A stretch of DNA of 41,384 nucleotides, taken from assembly GCA_003990765.1 (NCBI GenBank), contig RBNJ01000107.1, positions 1 through 41,384 of the forward strand, written 5' to 3'. The notes below the pieces were generated by a model. It was not told the origin of the DNA and searched no databases. It was given only the letters and a program-made list of their open reading frames with translations. Shown here piece after piece: positions 1 to 38,024 of this stretch (the first letter of the stretch is position 1; each line of letters starts with the position of its first letter). The stretch is from Jimgerdemannia flammicorona (taxonomy: Eukaryota). A program made the position numbers and the translations under genes.

Positions 1-50
1 GGTCGGGTTCAGGGGTCGGGTTCAGGGTCGGGTTCAGGGGTCGGGTTCAG
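1..50 (+). repeat. 12-13-bp tandem repeat GGTCGGGTTCAG(G), 4 copies
   Basis: Directly visible at the window start. Confidence 0.9.
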
Positions 51-94
51 GTTTGGGTTAAGGGTAAATAACGGGTCGGGTGACATACATTTCC

Positions 95-259
95 AGGTCG
101 GGTTAAAGACGGGTGACGTATTATTCCGGGTCGGGTTAAAGACGGGTGACGTACAATTCTGGGTCGGGTTAAAGATGGGTGACGTATAATTCCGGGTCGG
201 GTTAAAGACGGGTGACGTATAATTCTGGGTTGGGTTAAAGACGGGTGACGTCTAATTCC
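95..259 (+). repeat. 33-bp tandem repeat, 5 copies (GGGTCGGGTTAAAGACGGGTGACGTATAATTCC)
   Basis: Units start at 95, 128, 161, 194 and 227 with few substitutions. Confidence 0.95.
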
Positions 260-318
260 AGGTTGGCTGTTTTACGGGTCGGGTTTTGGGTTAATCGGGT
301 CGGGTTTGCGGAGCACTA

Positions 319-2057
319 TCCCTGATGAGCCGACCACCCACAAATCCCCTCTGCTCCACACCCACGACTTGCTGGGCCACCTTCTGTAGTCTTGCCACCA
401 CCACCTTGGTTACCAACTTTCTGTCCATATCTAGCAGCATTATCGGCTGCCAGTTCCAATCCTCCCGCCCTCCTTTGTTTTTGTAGAGCAGCATCACCAG
501 CCCAAGGTCCTGCTTCCCCACCCATGTACCTGTCTGTAGAATAAGGTCACACATTGCAGTCATCTCTCCCATCACCCCCGGGACTTCCACCATTCGTTTC
601 CAAAAGTCCCAGGGCAGCCCATCCTCCCCAGGTGCCATACCGGACATTGTCGTGGCAAGAACCTGGTGGATCTCACCCTTCTGTACAGGCATCACCAGGT
701 CCCCTAGCCCTTCAACTTGTGGTGGGTGCCAATCCTCCAATGTACGTTCAATTGTAGTGGCATCTACCCCACCCTCCTCCTCACTCCACAATCCACTCCA
801 TCTCTCCTTCAGCGATCCAAGAATGTCCTGAACACCATGCACTAGTACACCATCAGAGTCCAAGACCCCTTCCCACCATTGCTGGACCTGCCTCGCCCTA
901 AGGGCCCTTGAAAGAAGCTTGGAAGGCCTCTCTCCTTCCTCCAGATCCTGCCAACGAAGCTGTGCTGCCAAGCTTTGTACCCTTGCCTCTTCTTCCTCCT
1001 GCAGCACCCGTTGAAGTTCCCCAACCTCCATTTTCGCCCTCAGTAATCTCCAATCTTCTTCTCTCTCCAACATTGTCAGCCATGCCCACTCCTCCAGGAG
1101 CCTCGTCAATCGAGCAGAGGCCCAGCACACCTTTTGTTTTTGCTGCTTCCCTGCCTCCTTGCCAGCCTCCTTCTAGTAAATCCTGGCCATTTCCTTCATC
1201 CTCATCCACCAAGTCCCAACTGCAGCCCCTTCCTGCCTCCAGGTCTCCACCCTCAGCTGAATGTCTTTAGCCCACTCATCTCACCAGGTCTTGTCATCTA
1301 ACAAAGAGGAATTGAGGTGCCAATGTCCAGGCCCATCCCCACTTCCCCCAAAGCACCCCTGTCCCAAAAGCCCCCAGTGATCCGACCATAGACACCATTC
1401 CACCTCCAATGATTTCCAAACATCTAGGCCCCAGCAGCAAGCCATCAAAATCCAATCGATCCTAGTCCCCAGACCCCCTGCCCAATGTGTATAGACCTTC
1501 CTACTCCCCCAGCACTCCCTTCCAGCATCCAATAGTGCACTCAGCCTCTTGACTTCCTCCCATACCACCAGCCCTCCACTCCTGCCCTCAGCACCTCGTC
1601 CTCCATCTGATCTATCCATCAGTATATCCCTAACCATATTGAAATCTCCCCCAAGCACATCCACCCCGGCCTCCACAAGTAATCCACTCTCCTGTAGTCC
1701 CCTCACCCAATCGACCCTCTCACCCCGTACTGCAGGGCAGTAGCAAGAACCAACCATAACTGGTTCCCAGCCTACCCAAATCCACTCTCCCCAGACCAGT
1801 CTCTCCCCCCAGCACTGCACATTCTGTATCTCCCCTCTGCCTCTCCTAACCAAAATCCCAACCTTGCCCCTCCAAATTGCTGCACCACCCCATTTCTTCG
1901 TCCATTCTAATCTATCAAAGTCATCTTCACACTGGACATCCTGCAAGAGGAAGAGATCGGCCTCCAATCCCTTCATCCAAGTAAAAATGTTCCTACATCG
2001 AGAAGCGCCCCATAACCCATTCACATTCAAAGAGAAAATGTTTGTTGTACTGTTCAT
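319..2057 (-). pseudogene. LINE ORF2 (apurinic-like endonuclease plus N-terminal RT), with stops and frameshifts
   Basis: APE motifs SLNVNGL, FLLQD, GGDFN, TRIDW, SDHW. RT-region motifs APGEDGLPWDFW, W-PIMLLDMDRKL, EQRGFVGGRLIRD. Confidence 0.95.
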
Positions 2058-2090
2058 ATTGATGATATATGTGATGTCGTCAATCTGCCT

Positions 2091-4114
2091 CTACTGCTCC
2101 ATGCTCATCTCCTCCTGTGCCCTGTCCAAATTGTGTTCCGCAGCCACCTCCTCCTCTTCAGCCCTCTGAGCCTCCAATCCAGCCAGTAGTTCATTCATCT
2201 CGCCATCAGCCTTCTCCTCAAACTCTTCTCAGTATTCGATGCATGCTTCCTACCAGAGCTGTAGTCCATGTCGCTTGTTCCAGCAGTATTCAGCCCTTTC
2301 TCCAGCAACAACTGCCATCTCCTCCTCCCTCTCCTTATCTACCTCATATCCTTCCTCCTCCAGATACACCGCAAGAATTTCCGCCTTCAATGCCTTCATC
2401 ACGCCATCCCCCTGCAGTATTCTCGCCCAGTGCTCATCACTCATCACTCGCAAGTCTACTTCCCCCAACTCTTCCGCCGCCAGGTTATTCATCATCCGGC
2501 ACATCCAAAGCAAGTTCCCCACCTCTTTCGCCCCTGGAGTTGCTGGCCTCCCTCCATCCAACATTGTGGTATCAGCTCCAGCACTTGCAGACTCATCCCA
2601 TACTTCCGGGACATCCACCAGTTCCTCCTCGCCACCCGCCTCCACCTGTCTCCCATACGCCACCTCTGGAACTCCGAATTGCACCCGCTGGTCCCCTCGC
2701 ATTGGCACATCTTCCACCACCCTATTCCGGGAAGCCGGGCCATGCCTGATGAGAGGGATAGGGGTAGGGGAACCCACCCAGTCCTCCTCCCACACCTCTA
2801 GTGTACCATCCGCATACAGGTCCTTCCCCGCCTTCATCTTATCCTCCCCCGCCTCCTTCTTGTCTTTCCCCTCTCCCTCACCGACCCAGACACTCACTCC
2901 AGCTCCCCCTGAGCCCTTCATCTTGCTCACCTCCACCAGTAGTCCACTATCCACTTGGCCAACAACTCCTTCTGCCTCTTGCGCCCCTGAGCCCTTTCCC
3001 ACTGCTCCATGGTCACTCGAATCCGCTTTCCATCCACCACCTCCAAGTGTGTCGCCTCTTCAAAAGCCTCCCAAGCCTTCACTCGCCTCTCTACAGCCCC
3101 CCCAAGCTTCTCGAGCACTTCCAGTAAATCCTCCTCCTCTTCCTCACTCCCCTTCACCCTTGTCACCTTACACAGGATCACTCCCCAGACCATCGCTGAA
3201 GGCCAATCCCTTGCCTTCCCAGTGGCTTCCTTCCCAGCCAGCCGAATCCTCACATCCACATCACCAGTCCTGAGCAAGGTCCCCTCCCAGACCCTGAACC
3301 TGATATCGACCACCTCGTCATATTCCGCTATGAAATCCTCAACCCTCTTCCTCGTCTCCATTGCTGTCACCATCGGCACTCCCTTCACCAGCAGTTGGAC
3401 CACCCTGGGGTCCCACTTCAAGTACCGCACCATAGGAACACATACCTCCCCAACCATCAATCCAACCTTCAGCGCCTCCTCCAGTGGCGCCACCTCCTCA
3501 AAACCCACCTCCACTCCTTCCAGTCCCTTCAAAAACTTCACAGATGCTGCACCTGCCACCTGCTTAGCGATGAGCCCTAGCACCATTTTTGCCATCACCG
3601 CCATGCCCCGGAAGCATAGTGTGACCATGAATGCCGAAATTGATTTCTTGAGTAACAGAGCCACCACCAGACCCGTTACACTATCTGCCAAGTCCCCTTG
3701 CCTTCTAAGCCTCAGCCGCTCAGCCTCGTCATCAGCCGTCACATCTGGATTTTTTTCCAGATTGACAGTCCCAACACCATCAGCAGTCACACCCCCCCCA
3801 GCCACTACTCCCATAGCTCCACTGCCCCCCCTTCCAAGGGCCGCACCCCCTAGCACTGTCTCCTTCTCGGTCCCCTTGCCCTTCTTCAGCCAGCCCTCCA
3901 GCCCTAATGCCTGCTGCCTCCCCTTCACCATCTCCGCGAAGCTTGCCCTCCCAGATCCTGATCCTCCACCACCTCCTCCACCCCTTCCATGTCCACCTGC
4001 CAGCAGGCCCCTCATACCGCCCCCTAGGCCTGGCCCCCTCCCCACCTGCTGCCAGTCGAAAGCGCTAGGGCCGCCCTGCCCAGTATGCACCTCAGGTTGT
4101 CTGTCGGTTGCCAT
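2091..4114 (-). pseudogene. LINE ORF1 (gag-like nucleic-acid-binding protein), disrupted
   Basis: ORFs 2927-4114 and 2250-3002 join by a frameshift and end at TAG 2091-2093. The segment VQLLVKGVP...YDEVVDI...RTGDVDVRIRL resembles the RRM-like region of Tx1/L1 ORF1. It aligns with copies B and D. Confidence 0.85.
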
Positions 4115-4196
4115 GTTGTTAGTCTCTTTTTGCTGAAAACGTCGTCGAAAGTGCCTTCCAAAGGTTGTGTAACCTGAATGGTACTGGAAAGAGATG

Positions 4197-4267
4197 CAAG
4201 CCTGTGGGCAGCCTTCCTTTTATACAAATCTCCTCCTCCTCTCTCAATATCTTTGCAACTCCACTAC
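4197..4267 (-). mobile_element. Displaced piece of LINE copy B ORF2
   Basis: Joined to 10388 across one ACTAC it reads EDWRLEGVKLEVVELQ..ILREEEEI (one frameshift), matching copy D EDWRLARIKLEILELQQVLREEEEV. Confidence 0.85.
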
Positions 4268-4554
4268 TGTAAGCACACAACCTCCAAGCCACCGAAATCA
4301 CATATCACCCTCTGAACAAGCCACTGAAATCACATGTGAGCTCCAATCAAATCTGGAAATCACCTGCTTAATTATGAAGCTGAGTCAAACTGAAGTCACA
4401 GTGCACAAAGCTGAGTCAATATGAAGTCACAGAACACAAGATTCACATAAACAGAATCTTACCAATTAGGACCAAATGTATAATACCAAGCACTGAGACA
4501 CATCGAATCAGAGAACCAAAACAAACAACAACCACAACTTCCAAATACACAAAC

Positions 4555-5652
4555 ATGACCACCAAGATCTATATCTGTATCCGCATTGACATTTGGAATG
4601 CCATTGTCAACCGAGCCACACTCCCTCTGCCCCTCATGAATATCCATAGCCTAGCACCCCTCTACTTTGTGGAAGCCTGATGGAATGCTCTGAACATGCT
4701 TAGCAAGGCCTACCAAATCAGACAAATCTCAAGCTACTACCAGATCAGCTGCCTCCTGGAAGACATGATTGAACACCACCACGATACAGACATTACCCAG
4801 ATGTCTCAACACCAGAAGCTCATCGCCCACAAATATCGAGAACTCTTCTACGAGTATAGCACCATTATTCCCTGCCTCCAAGTTACTATAGCCAAAATGG
4901 TTACTACTCTGTTCTATGGCCAAATTGATGACATGATACAAGAACTCAACCACAAGTACCTTGAGTATGTTAAAACCACAGATAGAACCTTCCCACACCC
5001 CAATGATCATATCCTACAAATGCCCCAAGTTGGATATGCCATAAAGGACATCTATGATATAATCCACTTCGATGAAGATGAAGCAGAAGACAATGATCCC
5101 TCTGATGCCAACATGACCTCTAGCCAAGGATCTCTGCCAACCCTGATCACACCGCCAACCTTGCCGATGAACTTAAAACAATTCATAACAGCATACGAGA
5201 CTTATTGGGACAATGACCACTGGTATGAATACCAATCTACGTTCACCCCTGATTACTTCAACTATAATGAAGAGACCAGAGAACACAACCTGTACCTCCA
5301 GACAACCCTCGAGATCGAACCAACCACTCTACCACCTGAGTATGAGTGACATGAACCACAGCTGCCAGCTTACTACAACCCTGTGACTCATAGTGCTGTA
5401 AACTATAGAAGGTATACAAATAGTGAAACTGATGAAAGCGAAGATGTTGTACAGCTCCTTTGCCAACCAATACCTTACCCAGCATACAATACTGATAATG
5501 CCATCTTGTGGGATGGAGACAAAGTTCCAATGTATTATTACCTCAGCAAACAAGGAGAAGTAATCTGCGAACCACTCTTCCTAGACGACTACTTCATCAG
5601 AGATGATATAATTGATAGTGATATCATCAAGAACTACCCAGACAGTGCCTAA
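4555..5652 (+). pseudogene. Unknown 365-codon accessory ORF inside LTR U3 (copy 1)
   Basis: ATG 4555 to TAA 5652 in one frame. Only two TGA stops (4678, 5347), which are CGA and CAA in the other LTR. Confidence 0.8.
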
Positions 5653-5841
5653 ACCTATAAATAGCCTAGCAGTCATAGTATAGTTAGATTAGCCTTGTCC
5701 AATGTGACTGTGAACTGACTCAGTAGTCAGACGATCTCTTGACATGTCAGATCACACTTGTACTATGTGACTGCATTCCGACTCAGCAAGGCACTTAGTG
5801 CTACATCCATATCTAGCATAGTCTAGATAGCCCCTCACTAG

Positions 5842-5972
5842 TATAAATACCCCCTCCCCCAGACCTCAGAATCTCAGACTTGAACAATCCAAACACAACT
5901 CCTGAGCACTTTCCCACAATATCTCTTCACACAGCTACTCCTGGTATAGCAATATCATGAATAGCGAATAAA
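5842..5972 (+). promoter_or_regulatory. LTR core promoter (TATA) and polyadenylation signal
   Basis: TATAAATA at 5842 and AATAAA at 5967, both also present in the LTR copy at about 20894 and 21026. Confidence 0.6.
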
Positions 5973-6334
5973 CCTATTTAACAACCCACAAACCACTCTT
6001 AAGTAAATCCACTCCTTTTTAGGTCCCACTCCTAACCCCATCACGAAACTTCCTAATTGGGTATTGTCTGTAGCAATATGCTAATTCAACTAAGCTGGTC
6101 TTAGTTTTTGAACTTCCTGAAATATGGAAAATCCTGAACATTCAGAACTAGTCCAAAAAAGGACTTCGGTTGAGACGTCAACCCAATCTTGAAATCAATA
6201 AGCATAGAGGATGTACTCCATATGAAATTGATCTTGACCATAAGAAAATGGTCTTCCAGAATATCCAGAACTTCCAGAAAACCCTTCCAGAACTATGTAA
6301 TGGTTACCCTAAAAAGCAACCTTCTTACAACTTG

Positions 6335-6712
6335 AGTGGGTGGTTGGTACAAAGTGGGCTTGTTTGCTGAGATAGTCCATGAAGACAATAATTGCATCTT
6401 TCCCATTCTTGGTTTGGGGTAGTTGTACAATAAAGTCTATAGAGATTTTGCTAGGGTCCACTTTAATTCCATTTGGAGTGATAATGTGTCCAAGAAATTG
6501 AATTTCTTTCAGGAGAAATTCACACTTGCTGAGTTTTGCAAAGAGTTGGTTTCTCGGAGTTTCAGTAGGACTAATTCAAGGTATTCAAGATGTTCCTCCA
6601 GTGTTTTGCTGAAGACTAGGATGTCGTCAATGTAGACAACAACGAATTTGTCCAGGTATGGGTGCAGGATAGTATTCATCAGGGTCTGGAAGGTTGCAGG
6701 AGCATTAGTTAA
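6335..6712 (-). pseudogene. Fused Gypsy RT fragment and integrase fragment
   Basis: [35 protein letters not shown]...[17 protein letters not shown] runs directly into [35 protein letters not shown]. Confidence 0.92.
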
Positions 6713-6715
6713 GCT

Positions 6716-8288
6716 ATTCAGACAGTATATCGAATAAATGGTCTGCTCTTGTATCATTTCATGCTTCATCATTGGTGATATATCCTAGGCTGACAGTGTT
6801 TAGAAGTGACTCGAGTTTTGTACAGAAGGTTTTGAATTCTTCTTTGCCATGTATATCAAATTTGAGGTTGCAGAGTTTTACTCGGGATTCAGCAATTATG
6901 GTTTCACTGCAATATTGGGCAATCATGAGTTGTTTGAGTCCAGGGGCTACAGAATGGGCTCCATATCCTGGGGCATTGTTTGCTGCATTCTGAGCAACTA
7001 CTACAGGTCAGGTATCCCATGTGAGGGGTTTTTCAGGAAGAGTTTGCCACCATTCTTTGGCAGGTCCTTGGAAGAATGTAACAACTTGGTGGACATAGGC
7101 TATAGTAGTAGCAAAGAGTTGTTCCAGAGTGTGGTTTTGATTGTTTGTCAGAACATGGTCAGCAACTTGCTCATTGGTCCATTGATTGGCTTCGAAGTTG
7201 GTGTCAACTATACTAATAAAGCTTTGGACTTCTTGTGCAGTACCATTGAAGATAGGTAGGCTCAGATTTTTGGTAGGTCGGGTCTGTTCAGCTAAGGCAG
7301 TAATGGTTGCTGCCATTATGGCTACCTGGGCTGTGAGGTCTAAAATCTGTTGGTTTGCCATATTGTTTACTGGAGGCAGTTGGACTGCTGGTAGTGGTGT
7401 TACTGGTACTACTTGAGGTACTGGTGCAGAGTGTGATGGGGTTCTTTGGGTCTGTGTAAGTTGCTGGAGTAGTAGTTGTGGGTCTGGAGTGAGGGCTTGA
7501 TAGATAGCTATTTGTTGCTATGTAGGTGTATTCTGTTCTGATGGAGGTACTTCTCCTTCAGTGGTGTATCCGGGATCGAATTCACTGAGATACTCCTCCT
7601 CTTCTTCGGTTTAGGCCTCATGTAATTAGGTTTGCTTGGCATCAAAGTAGATGGAATCAGTTGTATATCTGATTTCAGATGGACTTAATTCAAAGTCAAG
7701 TTTAGGTTCAGTATTGGTTTCAGATTCAGGTAGGGCTGTAGCAGGGCCTGCTTCAGGTTTGGGGTCAGGTAGTTGATGAAGGGTTTCTCTTGCTTCTTCT
7801 TTAAGAATATGGCAGGCCTTGCTGTTCTGGAATCGGTAGTATAATGTGGTCTTAGTCCTGGTGCGGTGAAAGTCAGTAGAGTTGAGCCACTTGGCTACAG
7901 AGGCTTGGGCTTCATGAGGAACTAAGGCTAGAAAGACTGCTGCTGGTTGTCCTAGGTCACTCGGATTTGTGGAGCTGACAAAACTCTTATTAAGAAGAGT
8001 AAAGAAGGCTTCAATAAGACCTTCTTCATCTTGACTTGCTGGATATAGTGCAAGGAGTTTGGTGAATAGGGTTTTGCCTATTTGCTAGTTTAACTGGAGT
8101 ACTTCTTTCTTTGAATGAAGTTTGTCTCACTTGTTGCAGGTGTGGAGGTCAGATTGTCCTTGTATGTCAGGTTCAATTCTCTCCAGATTGTCAGATGGAT
8201 CAGGATAAATTCCAGTTCAGAGGTTGGGCTTTATACCAACTTGTACATAGGAATTCACAGAGGGGTTTGTAGCAGGGTGAGGAAGCAT
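6716..8288 (-). pseudogene. gag: Ty3/Gypsy gag, 3'-truncated with in-frame stops
   Basis: ATG 8288 is in frame with ORF 7008-7361. Capsid-like motifs LPIFNGT..VQSFIS and FFQGPAKEWW; lies directly after the LTR and PBS. Confidence 0.75.
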
Positions 8289-8312
8289 CTTGAAGTGGAA
8301 TTGGATTGTAAA

Positions 8313-8324
8313 CTGCTGCTATCA
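8313..8324 (-). promoter_or_regulatory. Candidate primer-binding site (TGATAGCAGCAG, possibly decayed TGGTAGC..., initiator-Met-tRNA-like)
   Basis: Begins 3 nt after the LTR CA end; one G>A change away from the TGGTAGC iMet PBS start. Confidence 0.45.
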
Positions 8325-8327
8325 AGT

Positions 8328-10387
8328 TGTAAGGTTGCTTTTAGGGTAACCATTATGTAGTTCTGGAAGGGTTTTCTGGAAGTTCTGGATATTCTGGAAG
8401 ACTGTTTTCTTATGGTCAAGATCAATTTTGTATCGAGTACATCCTCTATGCTTATTGATTTCAAAATTGGGTTGACATCTCAACCAAAGTCCTTTTTTGA
8501 ACTAGTTCTGAATGTTCAGGATTTTCCATAATTCAGGAAGTTCAAGAAACTAAGACCAGCTTAGTTGAATCGGCATATTGCTGCAGACAATACCCAATTA
8601 GGAAGTTTTGTGATGGGGTTAGGAGTGGGACCTAATAGGGAGTGGAGTTACTTAAGAGTGGTTTGTGAGTTATTAAATAGGTTTATTCGCTATTCATGAT
8701 ATTGCTATACTAGGAGTAGCTGTGTGAAGGAATATTGTGGGGAAGTGCTCAGGAGTTGTATTTGGATTGTTCAAGTCTGAGATTCTGTGGTCTGGGGGAG
8801 GGGGTATTCATACTAGTGAGGGGCTATCTGGACTATACTAGATATGGATGTAGCACTAAGTGCCTTACTGAGTCAGAATGCAGTCATGTAGTACAAGCGT
8901 GATCTGACATGTCTAGAGATCGTCTGACTGCTGAGTCAGTTCACAGTCATGTTGTACAAGGCTAATCTAACTATACTATGACTGCTAGGCTATTTATAGG
9001 TTTAGGCACTGTCTGGGTAGTCCTCAATGACATCACCATTGATTGCATCATCTCTGATGAAGTAGTCATCTAGGAAGAGTGGTTCATGGATTACTTCTCC
9101 TTATTCGCTGAGGTAATAATACATTGGAACTTCATCTCTGTCCCATAAGATGGCATCATCAGTATCATATGCTGGGTAAGATGTTGGTGGGCAAAAGAGC
9201 TGTGCATCATCTTCACTTTCATCAGTTTCGCTATCTGCATACCTTCTATAGGTTACAGCACTAGGAGTCACGGGGTTGTAGTAAGCTGGTGGCTGTAGTT
9301 CATGTTGCTCATACTCAGGTGGTGGAGTGGTTGGTTCGATCTCGAGGGTTGTCTGGAGGTACAGGTTGTGTTCTCCAGTCTCTTCATTATAGTTGAAGTA
9401 ATCGGGGGTGAATGTGGGTTAGTATTTGTGCCAGTGGTCATTGTCCCAATAAGTCTCGTATGCTGTTATGAATTGTTGTAAGTTCATCAGCAAGGTTGGC
9501 AGTATGATCAGGGTTGGCAGAGATCCTTGGCTAGAGGTCATGTCAGCATCAGAGGGATCATTGTCTTCTGCTTCATTTTCATTGAAGTGGATTATATCAT
9601 AGATGTCCTTCATGGCATATCCAACTTGGGGCATTTGCAGGATATGATCATTGGGGTGTGGGAAGGTTCTATCTGTGGTTTCGATATACTCGAGGTACTT
9701 GTGGTTGAGTTCTTATATCATGTCATTGTTTTGGCCATAGGACAGGGTAGCAACCATTTTAGCTGTAGTAACTTGGAGGCAGGTAATAACAGTGCTATAC
9801 TCATAGAAGAGTTCTCTATGTTTGTGGGCAATGAGCTTCTGATGTTGAGACATCTGGGTAATGTCTGTATTGTGGTGGTGTTTGATCATGTCTTCCAGGA
9901 GGCAGCCGAACTGGTAGTAGCTTGAGATTTGTCCGATTCAGTAGGCCTCGCTAAGCATGTTCAGAGCATTCCATCGGGCTTCCACAAAGTAGAGGGGTGC
10001 TAGGCTATGGATATTCATGAGGGGCAGAGGGGGTGTGGCTCAGTTGACAATGGTATTCCAAATGTCAGCACGGATACAGGTATAGATCTCAGTGGTCATG
10101 TTTGTGTGTTTGGAAGTTGTGGTTGTTGTTTGTTTTGGTTCTCTGATTTGATGCATCTCGGTGCTTGGTATATATGCATTTGGTCCTGATTGGTAAGATT
10201 CTCTTTGTGTGAATCTTGTATTCTGTGACTTTGTATTGACTTAGCTTTGTGCACTGTGACTTCGGTTTGACTCAGCTTCATGATCAAGCAGGTGATTTCC
10301 AGATTTGATTGGAGATCGCGTGTGATTTCAATGGCTTGTTCAGAGGGTGACATGTGATTTTGGTGGCTTGGAGGTTGTGCGCTTACA
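8328..10387 (-). repeat. LTR (2060 bp), minus orientation; 5' LTR of the gag-bearing unit
   Basis: Inverted copy of 4268-6329 with the same TGTAAG/CTTACA termini. Confidence 0.92.
9002..10099 (-). pseudogene. Unknown 365-codon accessory ORF inside LTR U3 (copy 2)
   Basis: Same 1098-nt length as copy 1. Its stops (9938, 9713, 9419 and one near 9102) correspond to CAA codons in copy 1. Confidence 0.8.
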
Positions 10388-13300
10388 ACTACCTCCAATT
10401 TCACCCCCTCCAGTCTCCAATCCTCCACCTCTTCAGAAGAAAGCAAATCAGTCCATTCCATCTGCAATCTAATTAGCCTATTAGAAGCACACCTCACTCA
10501 CTTCCTTCTCTGCCTCCCAGCCTCCCTATCAGCTCCTCCCCAATACACCCTTGCAGCCACCTTTAACCTCATCTAGCAGGCACCCACCAATGAACCCTCA
10601 TGTATCCAGTGAGTGATCATTACTTAGATATCCTCTATCAATAGGACCTACAACCCCTTCTCAGCCAGCAGAGAGGAGATAAGGCACTAATGTCTGGGCC
10701 CATCTCCACTTCCCCCAAAATGCTGCTGCCCCAATAGCCCCCAGTGATCAGACCATAGGCACCACTCCACCTCCAGGGTCCTCCAAACTTCAACACCCCA
10801 ACATTCAGCCATCAGAATCCAGTCAATTCTCATACCCAGCCATTCATCCAGTGTATATACATAGACCCTCCTGTTGCCCCAACATATTTTACCCATATTC
10901 TCTAAGGAGGAGAGATTCTCTGCCTTCTCCTACTTTTCCAGTCCACCACTCCTCCTGCCTGCATTCCTCTCTCCACAGTTCTATCTAACTGTAGATCCTG
11001 CACCATATTAAAGTCACCTCCCAGAACATTTATGCCTTCCTCCAAGAGAATGCCTTCCTCCAAAAGATCCCTAATCCACTCAATCTGCTCACCCCTAACC
11101 ACAGAGCAGTAGCAGGAGCCAATCTTTACAGATTTCCACCCAGGTTGATGCCATTCTCCCCAGACCAAGCAGTCACCCCAGCTCCTGATTCTGCTCAAAT
11201 CTCCTCTACCCTTTCTCACCAGAATCACCACTTTGCCAATCCAAGTAGTAGCTCCTCTCCATTCTCTAGTCCACTCTACCTGATCTTCCTCACCCTCACA
11301 CCATATATCCTGTAGTAAAAAGATATCAGCCTCCAATCCCTTAAGCGAAGTAAAAATGTTCTTCTGCAGCCCAGCCCCCCATAATCCATTCACATTCAGA
11401 GAGAAAATGTTAGTTGTACTGTTCATTAGGAATAATGTTAATTATCAATTGCATCCTCTACAAATCCACATTCAACTCCTTCTCTGCCAAGTCCAAGTCA
11501 TGTTCTGCAGCCAGCTCCTTCTCTTTAGCTGCCTGTACCTCCAACCCTTCCAGAAGTTCATCCATTGTCCCATCCTCCTTTTTCTCAAAGTCCTCATAAT
11601 ACTCCAGATATGCCTCCTGTCAGAGTTGCAAACCATGATGCTCTGCCCAACAGTAGGCAGCCTGCTCACCAGCAACAACTGCCAGCTCCACCTCTCTCAC
11701 CTTATCAACCTCATATCCCTCCTCCTCTAGGAAAATCACAAGAATCTCTGCCTTCAGTGCCCCCACCACTCCCTCACCATACAGAATCCCTGCCCAGTGC
11801 TCCTCACTCATCACTCACAGATCTACTTCTCTCAACTCCTCAGCTATGAGGTTATCCATCACCTTGCTCAACCACAGCAAGTTCCCCACCTCCTTCCCTC
11901 CAGGTGTCCCTGGCCTTCCTATATCCAGTATCATGGTATCTGCCTCTATACTAACAGTCTCATCCCATCCCTCCTCAGGGATATCCACCAGTTTGTTCTT
12001 ACCAACAGCCACCACCTGTCTCCCTTTTGCAACATCAGGAACCCCAAAGTATACCCACTGAGCACCCCACATCAGCTTGTCCTCTGCTACCCAACTCCTC
12101 ACAGCTGGACCCTACCTGATCAGAGGGGGAGTGTTATCCACAACTGGGTCCCAGACCTCAAGTGTACCATCAGCAAATGGGTCCTTGAGAGGCACATTCT
12201 CAGCCCCTTCCAAGCCCTCCTCTCTATCACCACCTCTCTTACTAGCCCAGACACTTGCCTCCACTCCCCCAGACTTCTCAGGGCCCTCAGCCTTCATCTT
12301 TGCCCCTCCTTCCATGCTCACCAGTAACTCCCTCTGCCTCCTATACTCTTGAGCCCACTCCTACTATTTCTTGTCAATATGAATATATTTCCCATCAACA
12401 ATTTCCAGATGTATCGACTCTATATACAATTTCCAGGCCTTCACCCTCTGCTCAACAGCACCACTCAACTCCTCCAGAGCCTCCAACAAGTCCTCCTCCT
12501 CCTCCTCACTCTCTCTCACCCTTAATATCATACAGACAAAAGCCCCCCACATCAACACCAATGGCCAGTCACTTGTCTTCTCCATAGCCTCCCTTCCAGC
12601 CAGTCTAATTCTGACATCTATGTCACCTGTCCTAAAGGAGGTCCCCTCCCACACCTGGAAGCCAACATCCACCACATCACCATACTCCACCATTACCTCC
12701 TCCACCCTCCTCCTAGTCTCCTCCTTCATCACTGTAGGCACCCCCTTTACCAGCAACTGTACCACTCTGGGGTCCCACCTCAGTCAGCATACTATGGGGA
12801 CCACTACTTCCCCAACTACCACTCCAGTCTTCAGAGCTTCTTCCAGTGGGCCTACCTCCTCAAAACCCACCTCAATCCCCTCCAGACCCTTCAGAAACTT
12901 TACTGAGGTAGCCCCAGCCACCTACTTCAAGATAAGCCCCAGGACCATTCTTGCCATTACTACCAAGCCCCAGAAGCACAAGGTGATCACAAACTTCAAA
13001 ATTGACTTCTTGAGCAATGGTGTCACCATCAACCCCCTCATACTATCTGTCAGGTCCCCCTTCCACATTAGCAACCCCTGCCCCAACTTGCCATCAGCCA
13101 TCACATCTCTTTTTTTTTCTTGATTCCCCATCACACTCCCATTGACAGTCACTCCCCCAGCCACAGTATCTCCAGCACCTATGCTTGCATCCCTGACCTG
13201 AGTACCACTCTCCCTCCTGATGCTTGCCTTGCCCTTTCCCTCAGCAGCACCAGCTCTAGTTTCAGCTGGCCATCTACTCATCTTCACCTTATTGACAAAG

Positions 13301-13563
13301 CTAGAGGGGCCAGTCCTTCCCCCAGCTCCACCTGACACCAGTTCTCCTCCAGAATCTTCTCCACCCTTTAACCCTCCAAAGGCCCCTATCCCCAGACCAC
13401 AACCTCTCCCTACATTCTGTCAGCTGAATTCCCTAGATCTCCCTGACCTGGCATACCCATCAGAACTCTTGCTCAATAATATTAGTATAGTATCTTTTCT
13501 CCAAGTTGTGTCAAAAACTGTTGCTTGAAGTTGGTATAATATGAATTGTACAGGAGAAAGGTG
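10388..13563 (-). mobile_element. L1/Tx1-like LINE copy B (older, CpG-erased): ORF1 about 11460-13480, ORF2 start 11426
   Basis: MNSTTNIFSLNVNGLWG, GGDFN, SDHW; ORF1 fragments align with copies A and D; 5' end CACCTTTCTCCTGTAC. Confidence 0.93.
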
Positions 13564-16959: not shown

Positions 16960-18350
16960 TGTTTCCATAGAGTCCTGGAGGGCTTCATGTGTATTTTTCA
17001 GAGCTTCTTCTTTTTCTCAGATGGTATCATGGGTGGGGTAACCCTTCCACTTGATGAGGAAAAACTGCTTGACTGTTTTGGTATATTTGTAGACCTTGTG
17101 GTCAAGTACTTCCTTGATTTCGAATTCCTCATGATTATTGATCCTAATTGGGGGTAGTGGTGGAACTGTACACTTAGGAAATGAGTTCTCATAGTAGTCC
17201 ACTAGTTGGTTGATATAGAATACCAGATATACTCAAATATTGTAGAGGAGTTGTAACTTGTAGTTGACTTCACTGACTTTTTCCCCAATCTTATATGGCT
17301 AATTCTTCTAGCTTGGAGTTTCTTGGCTGATTGATATATTAGAGTGTCTGGGTAGAGGTGGTCTGTTCTAAGCATAACTATGTCACCAATATTGTAGGAG
17401 ACTTCTCTTTACTTCAAGTTCACATACTTGGTCTGATAGTCTTGTACTTCTATGAGAGCATCTCTTGTCATTTGGGTAAGGTCAGAAATGGACTCAGCCA
17501 TATCTTGAACTACTGAGACTGTTGATTTCACAGTATAGCTTGGAGTCCTTGAGTATTGGCTATGGTTCAGGAAGAATGGAGTCTTCTTCATAGATATTTA
17601 CTGACTATTGTTGTAGACAAACTCAGCATGGGCTAGAGACTTGTCCCAATCATTCTGCTTATAACAGCAGAAGATACTGAGTATCTGCTTGAGAGTTCTA
17701 TTGGTTTGTTAGTCTAATCATCTGTCTAGAGGTTGTAGGCAGTAGAGAACTTCAGCTTGGTTCTATAGAGAGAGAAGAATGCCTTCCAGAAGTTGATTGT
17801 AATCTTTGCATCCCAGTTAGATACAATGGTACTAGATATGCTATATAGCTTAAAAACTTAGTTAAGGAAGATCTTAGTAATTTCTAATATTGTGGCAGTG
17901 GTCAGAGTGTGTGCAAAATAGACTTATTTGTCTAGATGGTCTATAAATACTATATTGGCATCTCATCCTGTCTTGGTCTTGGAGAGCTGGACAATGAAGT
18001 TTATTGCAATCTAATTCTAGTTGTAACTTGAGATAGGTAGGGATTGCAGAAGTCCTACTGGTAGCTTGTTACCACTTTTGAACCTTTGGTATATCTTACA
18101 TGAAACCATGAAATCTTTGATATCTATAGTCATCTTTGGCCAGTAGAAGTCTCTTGAGAGGAGATTGTAGGTCTTCCCAAAGCCAAAATATCCTGCTGCA
18201 GGAGTGTCATAGAGTTCCTGTATGATCTTGAGTTGCAAAGTATCGTTATTGGATACAATTACTCTATTATAGTCCCTATAGATAAGTCCATCATGGTAAG
18301 TGAATCTTTTGGACATTTTCCTCATGGATTCTGGGACCTCAGCCTATGGG
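16960..18350 (-). pseudogene. Chromovirus (Ty3/Gypsy) integrase plus chromodomain
   Basis: Decayed zinc-finger region (ELYDTPAAGYFGFGKTYNLLSRDFYWPKM), KTPFFLNH, and chromodomain EEFEIKEVLDHK...FFLIKWKGYPTHDTI. Confidence 0.9.
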
Positions 18351-20155: not shown

Positions 20156-20207
<52 letters not shown>

Positions 20208-20500: not shown

Positions 20501-20649
20501 TGCCAGAAGTCTAAAAAAAAAGAGAACCAAAACCTGTTATTCTTATACAATCACTATCACTAAGGATAGTCTTAATCTTGCAAGAGATAGAAGTGATGAT
20601 ACCTTGGAAACTGATGATATCAGAAGTCAGAAAACTGCTCAGACTTTGC

Positions 20650-21388
20650 CAGAGATGATGTCATCAATAGTGATGTCATTGAAGATTACCCAGACAGTGT
20701 CTAAATCTATAAATAGCTTAGCAGTCATAGTATAGTTTGATTAGCCCTGTATGATATAACTGTGAACAGACTCAGAAGTCAGACAATCTCTTGATATATC
20801 AGATTACACTTGTACTATGTGACTGTATTCTGACTCAGCAAGACACTAAGTGCTACATCCATATTCAGTATAGCCCAGATAGCCCCTCACTAGTATAAAT
20901 ACCCCTCTCCCTGACCTCAAAATCTCAGACTTTAATAGACTCGAACAAACAAGAATATTCCTGAACACTTCCCCACAATATCCCTTTACACAACTACTCC
21001 TAGTATAGCAATATTATAAATAGCAAATAAACCTATTTAATAACCCACAAACCACTCTTAAGTAATCTACTCCCCATTAGGTCCCACTCCTAACTCTATT
21101 ATGAAATTTCCTAATTGGGTATTGTCTGCAGTGATATGCCAATTCAACTAAGCTGGTCTTAGTTTCTTGAACTTCTTAAAATATGAAAAATCCTGAACAT
21201 CCAGAACTAGTTCAAAAAAGGACTTTGGTTGAGACATTAATCTGATCTTGAAATCAATAAGTATAGAGGATGTACTCTATATAAAATTGATCTTGACCTT
21301 AAGAAAATAGTCTTCCAGAATATCTAGAACTTCCAGAAAACCCTTCCAGAACTACATAATGGCTATCCTAACAAGTAACCCTCTTACA
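20650..21388 (+). repeat. Third, partial copy of the 2-kb LTR family (3' about 740 bp, lacks most of the U3 ORF)
   Basis: Aligns with about 5598-6329 and ends CTTACA; homology stops abruptly at about 20650. Confidence 0.9.
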
Positions 21389-24329: not shown

Positions 24330-27000
24330 CCAATTTTCGTACAACCGCCACACGCTCCACCATCCTAGACGGTCCAGCCGCTGCTTATACGACGCGCCCC
24401 ACGGCCCTGTCATGACGCGCTTAATGACGTCCTCCATCGCTTAATAATGACGCCGTTGACTGCGACGCGCTCCACCATGACGCCTTTCAACGCGCCGCGT
24501 TCCACCACTCAAGGCCATCCCCTGGTTGCTACTACGTCGCGCCCCGCGGCCCCTTATCACTATATCTCCACCACGACGCGTTTCTCCACCCTGACGCGGT
24601 CTACCACTCAAGGCCGTTCCGTGACTGCTACTACGTTGCGCCCTCCACCACCACGAAAATTTCTACCGTGACGCGCTCCACTACTCAAGGACGTCCTGTG
24701 GCTGCTACTACGCCGCTCCCCGTGGGCCCTATTGCGGCGTGCTCCACCACGCCAGACCGTCCCATGGATGCTTCTACGACACGTCCCACGGCTGCAATCA
24801 CGCACTACCGTCACTTTGATGCTTCTATGGGCCGCTTCTACGACGCTAACTGCCGCGTCCCGCGGGTCCTACCACGACACGCACCGCTACTTCTACTACG
24901 ACATGCCCCACCGCTACAAGAATACCGCACCCTACGGCAGCTGCCACGACATGTCTCACCGGTTGTATAACTACGAGCAACGCCACCACTATAGCGACGT
25001 GCCCGTAGTTGTTTCCACAACGAGCCATGCGGCTGCTACCTCGAAGCGCGACGCTGCTTCTGGCGCTACGATCTCCGCCGCGGGTCCAACGACGCGTCCC
25101 ACGGCCGCATCACGCGAGACCGTACCTTTGATTCTTCTATGACGCGACCCACGGCCGCTTCTACGATGCGCCCGCGGCTGATAACGCGACACGCACCGCT
25201 ACTGTTACTACGACATGCCCCACGGCTAAAAGAACAACGCACCCTACGGTAGCTGTCACGACACGTCCCCACGCTCCTATAACTACCAGCCCTGCCACCA
25301 CTACAGCGACGTGCCCGCGGTTTTTCCACAACGAGTCGTGCGGTTGCTACCTCGAAGCGCAACGCTGCTTCTAGCTCTACGATCCCCGCCGCAGAACCAA
25401 CGACGCGTCCCACGGCCACTCTCATGCAAGATCGTCCCTTTGGTGATTTTACGACGCGCCCGCGGCTGTTAGTATGTCGGGTCCCGCGAGCCCTACCATA
25501 ACACGCACCGCTATTGATACTACGACACTCCACACGGCTGCAAGGACAACGCACCCTGCGGGCAATTGCCACGACGCATTCCATCACTTCTATGTCTACG
25601 AACTCTGCTACCACTACAGCTACGTGCCCGTGGTTGTTTCCACAACGAGCCATGCTGCTGCTACCTCGAAGCGCAACGCCGCTTCTTACACTACGATCCC
25701 AGCCGTAGGTCCAACGACGCGTCCCACGCCGCTATCACACAAGACCATCCATTTTGTGCTTTTATGGCGCGCCCCACGGCCGCTTCTACGGCGCGCCCAC
25801 GGCTGATAACACGCCGCGTCCCGCCGGTCCTACCATGGCACGCATGGCTACTGCTACTACGGCAACCCCACGGCGACAAGAACAACGTACCCTACGACAG
25901 CTGCCATGACACGTCCCACCGCTTCTATAACTACGAGCCCTGCCACCAGTACAGCGACGTGCTCGTGGTTGTTTCCACAACGAGCCATGCGGCTGCTACC
26001 TCGAAGCGCAACGCCGCCTCTAGCACTGCGATCCCCGCCGCGGCTCCAACGACGCGTCCCACGGCCGCTATCACGCAAGAGCGTCCATTTTGTGCTTCTA
26101 TCTCGCGCCCGCGGCCGCTTCAACGGCGCGCCCACTTCTGATAACACGCCACGTCTCGGCAGTCCTACCAAGACACGTAGCGCTATTGCTACTACGACAC
26201 GCCCCGTGGCGACAAGAACAACGTACCCTACGGCAGCTGCCACGACACGTCCCACCTCTTCTATAACTACGAGCCCTGCCACCACTATGGCGACGTGCCC
26301 GTGGTTCGAAGCGCGACGCCGCAGGTCCAACGACGCCTCCCACGGCCACTACCGTCCCTTTGATGATTTTAAGACGCGCCCGCAGCTGCTAACACGTCGC
26401 TTCCCGCGGTTCCTACCATGACACGCATCGCTACTGCTACTACGACAAGCCCCACGGCTACAAGAACAACATACCCTACGACAGCTGCCACGGCACGTCC
26501 ACCACTTCTATAAACATGAACCCTGCCACCACTACGGCGACGTGACCGTGGTTGTTTCCACTACGAGCCATGCGGCTGTTACCTCTAAGCGCTACACCGC
26601 TTCCAGCACTACAATCCCCACCACAGCTCGAACGACGCGTCCCACGGCCGCTATCATGCAAGTCCGTCCCTTTGGTGCTTCTACGACGCGCCCGCGGCTA
26701 CTAACGGGAGTCCTACCATGACACGTACCGCTACTGCAACTATGACACACCCCACTACAAGGAAAAGCACCCCTCGGCAACTGCCACGACGCGTCCCACC
26801 GCTTCTATAACTACAAGCCCTGCCACCATTACAGCAGCTTGGCCGTGGTTGTTCCCACAACGAGCCATTCGCCTGCTAGCTCGAAGGGCTACGCCGCTTC
26901 TAGCACTACAATTCGCCGCAGCTCCAACGAAGCGCCCAGCGGCTGGTAACACAACATACCCCGTAACTGCCACCTCGACGCGTCCCACCGCTTCTATCCA
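24330..27000 (+). repeat. GC/CpG-rich higher-order tandem repeat (24-nt monomers in about 250-336-bp units, about 7 copies) with broken Thr/Ala/Pro-rich coding potential
   Basis: Marker GTTGTTTCCACAACGAGCCATGC recurs near 25008, 25319, 25633, 25968, 26303 (truncated), 26551 and 26848. Monomer consensus is about GCTACTACGACGCGCCCCACGGCT (ATTTRPTA). Confidence 0.9.
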
Positions 27001-29949: not shown

Positions 29950-30207
29950 CTACTGTTGATACTCACAACTGATGTGAAAGTTTTTTGTTATCTTCACAAT
30001 GACATTTGTTTAAAAATAACAAGAAAAACAAAATTTACCAAAATTTTAAATAATCAATAACAAGTTCTCTATTTTTTATTTATTTATTTATTCTTTATAT
30101 GGCTTATAGTTATGTTTGTATAACTTCATTAAACTTTACATTGAAATTAAAATAAAATAGGAAATAACAATAGTAAGTAATTCTTTATACAATCCATAAC
30201 TTTTATT

Positions 30208-30209
<2 letters not shown>

Positions 30210-30289
<80 letters not shown>
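30210..30289. repeat. 80-nt poly(T) tract
   Basis: Directly visible. Confidence 0.95.
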
Positions 30290-34830: not shown

Positions 34831-35949
34831 TGGTAATAGGAAGGCCGAGACGAGAAAGCAGAAAGGCTGGGAACAGGAGAGCAGGAAGGCTAGGGAAAGG
34901 AGAGCAGGAGGCTGAGGGCAGCTGAGTGTTTTGTAAAGTTTTGCAAGGAAGTTTGACAAGGGAGTTATGGTTGGAAATTTTTTCTCAAGGGTAGATTTGT
35001 GAAAGAAGAGAGGAGAGTTCGAAAGGGCGAAGAGTTCCAAGGAGAGGATTGAGGGTAATGGAGAGTTCGAATGGGACAAAGGGGAAGGGGGAGGAAAAGG
35101 GTAGTGGCGAATGAGTTTATTTATGCGGGTATTCAGGGGGTGTGTGGCGTTTAGCAGCTGCATCCTCCTGACATAGGACTGCTATTCTTGATGTATATAC
35201 ATGCTTGTGGTCGTGTGGTATTCCATCAAAAGAGTCTAAATTTTTTATTTCTTTCACCCCTTTCATCTGCTCCGATATTCGGTTCCATCTTTAAGTTCAA
35301 TTTCTTCGCCGAATTTTGGTCATTCTCCAAAATTATCTTTGTTGAGATCCAAGTGTACTTCGCCGAAATCTCCTTCACTGACGAGGTCCCTCTGCTGTAT
35401 CTTGTCCGCTCCGAGAACAATAATCTTCCTAGAGATGGATATCTATCACCCCATCAAGATGATACATTTGCATACCCTCGAAAGGGGAGGAATTAACGGA
35501 AATCATTATTTTCATTTGCAGTAGAATTGTCCTCCGTACGAAAATCCTTAATTCTTACATCAACAAGTTCTTCCACTTCTTTGAATACTTACTTTATTCC
35601 ATTCATTAACAAATTAGACACAAGATGAATTGAACGTGTTTTCAAGCGCTTCGAATAATAATAACCAGTCTCATAGTTATGTAGTTGAGAGTAAAACAAA
35701 TGTTGGCTACCCATGGTGTATTCCAAGTTCGCTAAACCTTCATGAAACCGAACGAAACTCCTCCGAACCCCTTTTTTGCGCCTATTCTTCTCAGATCACA
35801 ATCTACCTATGACATGTCACTCACAATTCAAGGGGTACATCACTGGGAAGCACGCAAACGGCGAAGTCATCTTTCTCCAGTAACATTCAGGTTACACAAT
35901 CTTTTGGCAACACTTTTGACACAGTTTCTGGAGACAAGCTACTAGTATC

Positions 35950-37992
35950 AAGGCAACCAACAAGTATCCTGAGGTGCATACTGGGCAGGGTGGCCCTGGA
36001 GCGTTCAAATGACAGCAAGTGGGGAGAGGCCCTGGCTTGGGGGGAAGTATGAGGGGCCTGCTGGCAGGAGGACACAGTGGAGGAGGGGATGGGGGTGGAG
36101 GTCAAGGGTCTGCCAGTAACGATGGGGGAAGATCTGGGTTCCTGAGCTTCATGGACAAGGTCAAGGGGAGTGGGTGGCCGGCTGGTAATAGGGCTGGTGC
36201 TGCTGAGGGGAAGGGCAAGGCGAGCCTTGGGAGGGGGGGTAGTGCTCTGGCTGGGAGTGCAGGAGTAGGGGCTGGAGGTGCAGTGGCTGGGGGTATGACT
36301 GTTGATGAGAGCATGATGGGGAATCAGGAAAAAAAAAGAGATGTGACGGCTGATGGCCAGGTGGGGCAGGGATTCCCAATGCAGAAGGGGGACCTGGCAG
36401 ATAGTGTAACAGGGCTGGCAGTGACCCCATTGCTCAAGAAGTCAATCTCAGAGTTTGCCATGACCTTATGCTTCCAGGGCTTGGCAGTGACGGCAAGGAT
36501 GGTTCTGGGGCTTGTTTCAAAGCAGGTGGCTGGGGTGGCCTTGGTGAAGTTCTTGAAGGGTCTGGAGGGGGTTGAGGTGGGCTTTGAGGAGGCAGGCCCA
36601 CTGGATGAGGCGCTGAAGATGGGAGTCATGGTTGGGGAGGTGGTGGTCCCCATGGTGCGGTGCTTGTGGTAGGACCCCAGGGTGGTGTAGCTTCTGGTGA
36701 AGGGGGTGCCCATGGTGACTAAGGAGGAGACTAGGAAGAGGGTGGAGGAGGTGATGATTGAGTATGGTGATGTGGTGGACATTGGCTTTCAGGTGTGGGA
36801 GGGGACAACAATCAGGACAGGCAATATTGATGTTAGGATTCGGCTGGCAGGCAAGGAGGCCATGGAGAAGGCAAGTGACTGGCCTTCTGTGCTGATGTGG
36901 GGGGTGTTTGTCTGTAAGGTGTCAAGGGTGAAGGGGAGTGAGGAGGAGGAGGAGGACTTGTTGGAGGTACTGGAGGAGATGAGTGGAGCTGTGGAGAGGA
37001 GGGCAAGGGCCTGAAAGATGTATGAGGAGTCGACACATCTGGAGGTAGTGGAGGGGAAGCATATCCACATGGACAAGGAGCAGTGGGAGTGGGTGCAGGG
37101 GCGCAGGAGGCAGAGGGAGCTACTGGTGAGTATGACAGTGGAGGTGAAGAAGAAGGCGGTTGGGGCTGAGGTATCTGGGGGCATTGAAGCCAGTGTATGG
37201 GCTAGTAAAGGGGTAGGGGAGGTGGAGGTGGGCAAGGAAGGAGATGGGAAGGTGCTGAGCAAGGACCCTTTTACCAATGGTACCTTTGAGGTCTGAGAGT
37301 CAGTATTGGACTCCTTCCGCCACCCTCTGATCAGGAGGGGCCCGGCTGCAAAGAGAAGGGCAACAGAGAATGTGCAGATGCAGGGGGACCAGTGAGTGCA
37401 TTTTGGGGTCCCTGATGTGGTGAAAGGGGACCAGGTGGTGGCAGTGGGTGAGGATGAGCTGGTGGATGTCCCAGAGGTGGAGTGGGATGAGGCTGCCAGT
37501 GTGGGGGTTGACACCATGATGTTGGATGTGGGATGGCCAGGGACTCCAGGAGGGAAGGAGGTAGGGAACTTGCTGTGGATGAGCAAGGTGATGGATAACC
37601 TTGTGGCTGACATGTTGGGAGAAGTAGACCTGTGGGTTATGCCTGAGGAGTATTGGGAGTGGATTCTGTATGGGGATGGAGTGGTGGAGGCACTGAGGGG
37701 GGAGATTCTTGCAATCCTCTTGAAGGAGGAGGGATATGAGGTTGATGAGGTGAGGAAGGGAGAGTTGGTGGTGGTTGCAGGTGAGCATGCAACCTACTGT
37801 TGGGCTGAGCATCATGGGCTGCAGTTCTGGAGGGAGGCATGTCTGGAGTATCAAGAGGAATTTGAGGAGAGAGAGGATGAGGCGATGGTGGAACTTCTGG
37901 ATGGGTTGGAGGCACAGGAAGCTGGAGAAAAGGAACTAGCTGCTGAACATGAATTGGACTTGGTGCAGGAGGAGTTGAATGTGGACTTGTAG
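35950..37992 (+). pseudogene. LINE ORF1, multiple premature stops
   Basis: Pieces 36019-36672, 36697-37014, 37018-37296 and 37396-37992 share one frame, separated by stops (several TGG>TGA); start codon lost. Confidence 0.88.
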
Positions 37993-38024
37993 AGGTTGGG
38001 ATCACTTTTTTAAAATTATTCCTT

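Follow-up and report, generated by a model that had tools for sequence, protein, structure and literature searches.

A 365-codon reading frame, now broken, in the probable long terminal repeat of a Ty3-like retrotransposon of Jimgerdemannia flammicorona

Introduction

Proteins encoded in the U3 part of a long terminal repeat (LTR) are known in retroviruses, the examples being MMTV sag and HIV/SIV nef, and the bel/tas genes of foamy viruses run into U3; in foamy viruses a second promoter serves the accessory genes. One question then is whether a retrotransposon LTR can likewise harbour a gene of its own. The question is raised by a window of 41,384 nucleotides from Jimgerdemannia flammicorona (the whole stretch of DNA analysed here, contig RBNJ01000107.1), in which two repeats of about 2 kb each carry a frame of the same length. 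An earlier note, made from the letters of the DNA, had proposed that this frame is an accessory gene hidden in the U3 region of a Ty3/Gypsy element. In this report we explore how far the proposal holds. Our best model, which we regard as reasonably probable though well short of certain, is that the frame would be the remnant of a real gene situated wholly in the LTR of a high-copy Ty3-like family, intact at the time of insertion and formerly under selection.

The frame and its two copies

Both repeats contain a frame of 365 codons followed by a stop, amounting to 1098 nt at LTR positions 288-1385 of 2062, and the alignment of copy A with copy B contains no indel (Table 1). Internal stops number two in copy A and five in copy B, none of the seven being common to both, and each stop has as its counterpart in the other copy either CAA (five cases) or CGA (two cases). 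The coordinates and the alignment thus agree with the earlier description of paired 1098-nt frames without net indel or common stop, and also with the open ancestor deduced from it. The codons assigned opposite the stops needed one correction: TGA at 4678 does face CGA and TGA at 5347 does face CAA, but the five stops of copy B do not all face CAA, since copy A has CAA at four of them and CGA at codon 20. Overall, 102 of the 1098 bases differ between the copies, 93 of these differences being transitions.

An open run of this length is not readily obtained by chance. The stop frequency derived from base composition is 0.051 per codon, which gives a probability of about 5e-9 for 365 open codons, and the longest open run found in any of the six frames in 2000 shuffles of LTR A was 211 codons. 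The remaining five frames of the 1098 nt of copy A hold from 6 to 37 stops, the antisense frame being the one with 6. Upstream of the frame the nearest stop, at 4381-4383, is inside the LTR; downstream, the stop of the frame at 5650-5652 is directly followed by the first of two TATAAAT motifs, at 5656, as had been claimed. The 365-codon frame is therefore real, beyond chance, and in this stretch both of its copies are now dead.

Table 1. Coordinates of the features assigned in the window, with the strand and the basis of each assignment; roles given to sequence elements are predicted.
Feature	Position	Strand	Basis or remark
Putative LTR copy A, 2062 nt, TGTAAG...CTTACA	4268-6329	+	inverted-repeat arms, alignment, blastn, depth and loose ends of other copies
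Putative LTR copy B, about 92% identical to A, read as 5' LTR of minus-strand element	8328-10387	-	inverted-repeat arms, alignment, blastn
Putative third LTR copy, 5'-truncated, 86% identical to A positions 1331-2062	20645-21388	+	last 19 codons and stop retained
Internally deleted internal region: PBS-like site adjoining LTR B, gag-like stretch, RT piece, integrase-core piece	6330-8327	-	translations, RVT_1, loose ends at 6448
Integrase-core fragment, adjoins LTR A in opposite orientation	6336-6440	-	tblastn, 57% identity to 18010-17906 (-)
Target-site duplication ACTAC, left copy	4263-4267		joined-flank alignment
Target-site duplication ACTAC, right copy	10388-10392		joined-flank alignment
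Frame copy A	4555-5652	+	internal TGA at 4678 (codon 42) and 5347 (codon 265)
Frame copy B	9002-10099	-	internal stops at codons 20, 54, 129, 227 and 333
Candidate promoter of frame	4294-4485	+	GAAATCAC three times (4294, 4326, 4356), tandem repeat, TATAA at 4479
Two TATAAAT (5656, 5842), probable promoter of genomic RNA	5656-5848	+	motif positions; depth rise from bin 5882 a weak hint
Sole AATAAA of the LTR, probable poly(A) signal (role inferred)	5967-5972	+	motif position

An inverted pair of LTRs inserted as one unit

The two copies are arranged in a manner not expected of a Ty3/gypsy element, whose LTRs should be direct: the repeat arms (4483-6107 and 8547-10171) are inverted and 92% complementary, and the repeat finder reported no direct repeat here. 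Their termini are of the TG...CA type with a 6-nt inverted repeat (TGTAAG/CTTACA) in copies A and B, those of the third copy being alike. Between the two copies, on the minus strand, an RVT_1 match at 6512-6784 is followed by an integrase core at 6440-6336, so that reverse transcriptase (RT) precedes integrase; the gag-like stretch of the same region was judged by eye and has no Pfam match. From these RT and integrase pieces we take copy B for the 5' LTR of a Ty3-like element on the minus strand that has lost part of its interior. Copy A is fused back to front with the integrase of this element, at a point midway along it. Yet six bases, ACTTGA, are common to copies A and B past the end of the LTR, and for this reason copy A too would come from a 5'-LTR context. 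As to layout, the composite at 4263-10392 has its two U3 ends facing outward, and LTR A leads through 6 nt of primer-site flank into reversed integrase sequence.

The history of the insertion can be read from its flanks. Once one ACTAC is taken out, the joined flanks match a LINE copy at 39095-38862 in an unbroken alignment. The duplication together with the contiguous LINE flanks implies that the inverted composite entered as one unit; both LTRs would then derive from one template, on which the frame was open, the stops acquired since being different in the two copies. We suggest that the composite was an aberrant product of reverse transcription which integrase accepted, presumably because the 6-nt terminal inverted repeat of the LTR makes both of its ends alike. 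A G-rich stretch bordering copy B on its outer side was rejected as a polypurine tract, being LINE sequence. Neither an Rfam scan nor a tRNA scan gave a match anywhere in the window.

The inverted arrangement invites a different explanation, in which the 2-kb units are not LTRs but the inverted terminal repeats of a DIRS-like element or a DNA transposon, the frame being its gene. Two inverted copies and a composite bounded by a target duplication are what such an element would show. Against this, the interior holds RT and then a DDE integrase core; LTR A carries 6 nt of primer-site flank, as would a 5' LTR; other copies show a purine tract before the unit and a TGG of primer-site type after it, which is the context of direct LTRs; and no recombinase or transposase was found in the 74 of 112 frames (at least 90 aa) that were run against Pfam. 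A DIRS-like identity in particular was dropped in view of the piece of DDE integrase core, the 5-bp duplication and the lack of a recombinase in those 74 frames. We consider an inverted-repeat element very improbable. That the 2-kb unit is the LTR of a Ty3-like element is supported by its gene order and termini, and this part of the earlier reading stands; a normal direct pair of LTRs, which it also implied, does not, the arms being inverted.

Other copies of the family in public runs

Parts of the LTR occur in 20 public runs from 14 studies, comprising soil metagenomes and two organisms, none of which is recorded as RNA. Four of the 20 were aligned to the window at 80% likeness, with 3502, 445, 383 and 292 contigs respectively. 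In all four the depth jumps at 4268, in run X1 from 5.5 in one bin to 697 in the next, and loose contig ends are found at 4268 and at 6327-6334, the contigs that stop at 6327-6329 entering unrelated flanks. Seven contigs of run X3 have a purine-rich tract directly ahead of 4268 (agreement 0.68), and three X3 contigs extending past 6334 match the inner flank of copy B, with TGG 3 nt after the end of the LTR; at the position of this PBS-like TGG the window reads TGA. The purine tract, the TGG and the positions of the ends would fit an ordinary LTR family that has a polypurine tract (PPT) and a primer-binding site (PBS). Because the other copies show these apparently normal PPT and PBS contexts, we read the inverted LTR pair of the window as an aberrant copy of an otherwise normal family.

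A further discontinuity was seen at 6448, where contigs part from the window (four loose ends in X1, two in X3) and the X1 depth falls from 417 to 4; the position marks the joint of an internal deletion between the RT and integrase pieces. As regards the frame itself, its region is repeated in all four aligned runs, and in the DNA runs X1 and X3 every frame bin is covered, at about half the depth of R/U5, contig depth not being equal to copy count.

Selection on the frame

Copies A and B differ in a manner that looks neutral: the differences at the first, second and third codon positions number 48, 22 and 32, and 26 synonymous codons stand against 65 non-synonymous ones. Such neutrality is expected of copies that have been dead since insertion, and it is therefore silent on selection at any earlier time.

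Two more distant relatives were compared with the frame as protein sequences alone. P0003, an open 247-aa protein from a contig of 998 nt, corresponds to residues 115-364; in the alignment 149 of 250 positions are identical (60%) and 192 of 250 positive, and there are two in-frame gaps. P0004, of 128 aa and 79% identical, has the same Met start and ends where copy B stops (codon 129), and it may be a broken copy. A neutral substitution simulation was carried out in which the 222-codon open piece was taken to 60% amino-acid identity in 2000 runs. The frame was still open in 0.55% of the runs, the mean number of stops being 4.5-5, and the proportion of positives had a mean of 0.71-0.72 and never exceeded 0.78, the value observed for P0003 being 0.77. 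P0003 was ascertained as an open frame and so carries a risk of bias, which is limited because just two relatives exist in the collection.

The variants of the family offer a second comparison. Where copies A and B agree and a family variant differs from them, the change must have arisen between active lineages, and among the 24 variant rows shown for the frame (449 rows for the stretch are not shown) 10 of 14 such changes are synonymous; for private changes, in those of the 24 rows where A and B disagree, the proportion is 2 of 10. Random single changes are expected to be synonymous in 20-31% of cases. For these 24 rows the synonymous excess has a binomial p of 0.001-0.008 and a Fisher p of 0.036.

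These figures bear on the simplest rival, according to which the frame, whether captured or of chance origin, was never selected as a protein but rode as a non-functional passenger in the LTR of one young and fast-amplifying master copy, open merely for want of time. The neutral decay of both copies here would suit a passenger, as would a product with no known domain and no confident fold (see below), and the sense strand contains little G and T, so that stops are fewer; the antisense frame has just 6 stops. Composition alone, however, leaves 365 open codons at the low probability given above; a relative at 60% identity is still open over 247 codons, an outcome met in so few of the neutral simulations; and the variants between lineages are mostly synonymous. 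We judge a passenger unlikely. The frame seems rather to have been under purifying selection in the past, among diverged family members and while the element was active, and the open relative, the simulation and the synonymous variants are, in this sense, signs of selection that favour the genuine accessory gene postulated in the earlier note.

An orphan protein

The predicted protein appears to be an orphan. Among 1.84 billion representatives a full HMMER scan detected two relatives and no more, namely P0003 and P0004, both from short metagenome contigs, and word-based searches at near, shorter and longer length gave 1, 1 and 0 matches (the shorter one being P0004), about 15 billion proteins having been covered overall. 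A longer form fused to gag-pol was likewise sought by word-based search, which is a weak test, and none was found. No DNA relative was confirmed in metagenome, prokaryote genome or viral contigs. In Pfam neither read-through copy matched any family at E <= 1, including gag, pol and env, which bears out the earlier statement that no similarity to these is recognisable, and the best hit of a profile search of the PDB had E = 0.6, that is, noise.

Structure prediction added little to this picture. In the Atlas the model of P0003 has a pLDDT of 0.39, its structure neighbours have TM <= 0.30 and no usable feature match was obtained; the 222-aa open piece had no Atlas match either. AlphaFold2, run on an alignment of four rows, returned a pLDDT of 32.4 with no residue above 50, and with confidence at about 32 throughout no fold is assigned. 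Helix extends as far as about residue 170 in this low-confidence model. In composition the product is acidic (pI 4.3-4.5) and hydrophilic (GRAVY -0.5), with Tyr at 8-9% and an abundance of Asp, Glu, Thr and Pro, and inspection by eye reveals no hydrophobic membrane segment. It is the C-terminal half that contains the blocks most conserved in P0003, among them an acidic/hydrophobic tail that ends in YPDS. A late-domain reading of the PPEY in copies A and B was dropped, PPEY not being kept in P0003.

The lack of any likeness to gag, pol or env could also mean that the frame is a transduced host gene, or a fragment of one, conserved on account of its function in the host and not of any role in the element; the main text of PMC7264820 describes such capture in plant LTR retrotransposons. 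Against this, no cellular homologue was found among the roughly 15 billion proteins, the HMMER scan yielding only the two metagenome matches. Moreover, the frame region is repeated in four runs, whereas captured genes are typically present in one or a few copies, as that main text has it (PMC7264820), and the composition of the sense strand matches that of the gag-pol strand of the element. Capture from the host, one of the origins suggested in the earlier note, thus found no support in these searches and is in our view quite unlikely.

Motif layout and proposed expression

The frame is probably in U3, since it lies upstream of the TATA boxes; the TSS and the borders of R and U5 are placed from motifs, so that the U3 location asserted in the earlier note is a probable one. 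Ahead of the frame, within the first 290 bases of the LTR, the candidate promoter contains, in addition to the three GAAATCAC copies, a 31-nt tandem repeat with TGAGTCA at 4377-4439, and ATG 4555 is the first ATG past TATAA 4479. From this motif layout we infer that the frame may have had its own promoter.

On these grounds the frame could be a transcription unit of its own in each LTR. The GAAATCAC repeats and TATAA 4479 would start an mRNA near 4510, in which ATG 4555 would be the first ATG and which would end near 5990 by means of the poly(A) signal of the LTR itself at 5967, giving a transcript model with concrete ends. The protein would then be made from any 5', 3' or solo LTR. Genomic RNA would start further downstream, near 5875, and the rise of run depth at bin 5882 fits this start, weakly. 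The product might be a trans-acting adaptor that binds host factors and favours expression of the family, either by activating the LTR or by blunting silencing, the whole of this role being a guess from composition alone. Taken as a whole, the notion of the LTR as a self-contained gene, in which the 5' U3 holds a second promoter, an mRNA of 1.5 kb is produced and an activator or anti-silencing factor acts in trans from thousands of LTRs, is put forward tentatively, as a possibility that we think rather doubtful in its entirety. An alternative would be a spliced subgenomic RNA expressed from the 3' LTR; the contigs of the four aligned runs showed no GT..AG joint.

Depth along the LTR differs between runs. 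X12 and X16, which are only guessed to be RNA, have a depth of 0-187 over the frame against 500-7600 over 5882-6286, and the ratio of 5882-6286 to frame depth is about 100 in the runs guessed to be RNA and about 2 in DNA runs; we do not take these depths as evidence on expression. The depth rise over 5882-6286 could be the start of R, or it could reflect a commoner relative that has that part alone.

Comparison with known systems

In its placement the frame recalls MMTV sag and, more loosely, nef and bel/tas, being a frame in sense orientation in U3 (here by motif layout) and apart from gag-pol. The carrier of MMTV Sag is a retrovirus, whereas here it would be a Ty3-like retrotransposon; and, different again from MMTV Sag and nef, the frame is wholly inside the LTR and its product has, by eye, no membrane segment. 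Pfam includes models for both Sag and Nef, and there is no sequence relation to either, neither read-through copy falling into any Pfam family at E <= 1.

The additional ORFs (aORFs) of plant LTR retrotransposons, of which Ogre ORF1 is another instance, offer the second comparison. They too are orphan, lineage-restricted extra proteins, carried by Ty3-like elements with long LTRs and conserved among family members. Examples are the ORF0 of Retrosat2, RIRE3 and RIRE8, upstream of gag, env-like ORFs and the antisense ORFs of Grande, RIRE2 and Retand. The main text of PMC7264820 places aORFs in the internal region (PMC7264820), with which the Retand paper agrees in its account of aORFs; Retrosat2 ORF0 is, in the description of PMC3485330, an orphan ORF upstream of gag. 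The frame described here differs from them in that it is inside the LTR, the comparison being one of position and not of sequences. A phrase search of the main text of PMC7264820 found no wording of the kind in, within or inside the LTR, and a phrase search of the literature for an ORF in a retrotransposon LTR returned just papers on MMTV and retroviruses, which is not proof of absence. The frame thus resembles both the sag-type U3 gene of MMTV and the plant aORF and is, by sequence or position, a member of neither.

Extra genes of LTR retrotransposons are rare windows on the dealings between element and host. A frame inside the LTR would, by virtue of this position, be doubled in each element and kept in solo LTRs, and a gene so placed could be expressed from thousands of sites, with a dosage and a fate unlike those of gag-pol. 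Were the self-contained LTR gene true, it would be to a retrotransposon what Tas is to foamy viruses or Sag to MMTV, and would represent a new class of host-manipulating protein encoded by transposable elements; and if the protein acts on silencing or on LTR transcription, it would add a new participant to the conflict of genomes with their transposons, and would be a new tool as well.

Surroundings of the composite in the window

Three diverged copies of an L1-like LINE, 68-77% identical, are found at 318-4196 (-), 10390-13324 (-) and 35868-39767 (+). They contain an Exo_endo_phos endonuclease and RVT_1, have a GC skew of about 0.5 with a G-rich sense strand, and show long open frames on both strands; the LTR composite lies inside one LINE. 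A second, related Ty3-like element is represented at 17906-18343 (-) by a piece of integrase comprising H2C2 and the start of the core: the Integrase_H2C2 match at 18020-18343 is directly upstream of the region 18010-17906 (-), which is 57% identical to the fragment on the side of LTR A.

Tandem repeats occupy the beginning of the window (1-263), with a unit of 12-13 nt at 1-65 and a 33-nt unit present 5.7 times at 77-263. A GC-rich array (about 60%) at 24854-26306 has a unit of 312 nt in 4.5 copies with 74% matches, self-matches extending over about 24776-26954. Finally, two long T runs, of 46 bases at 20159-20204 and of 89 bases at 30201-30289, are possibly the poly(A) tails of retroposed elements on the minus strand.
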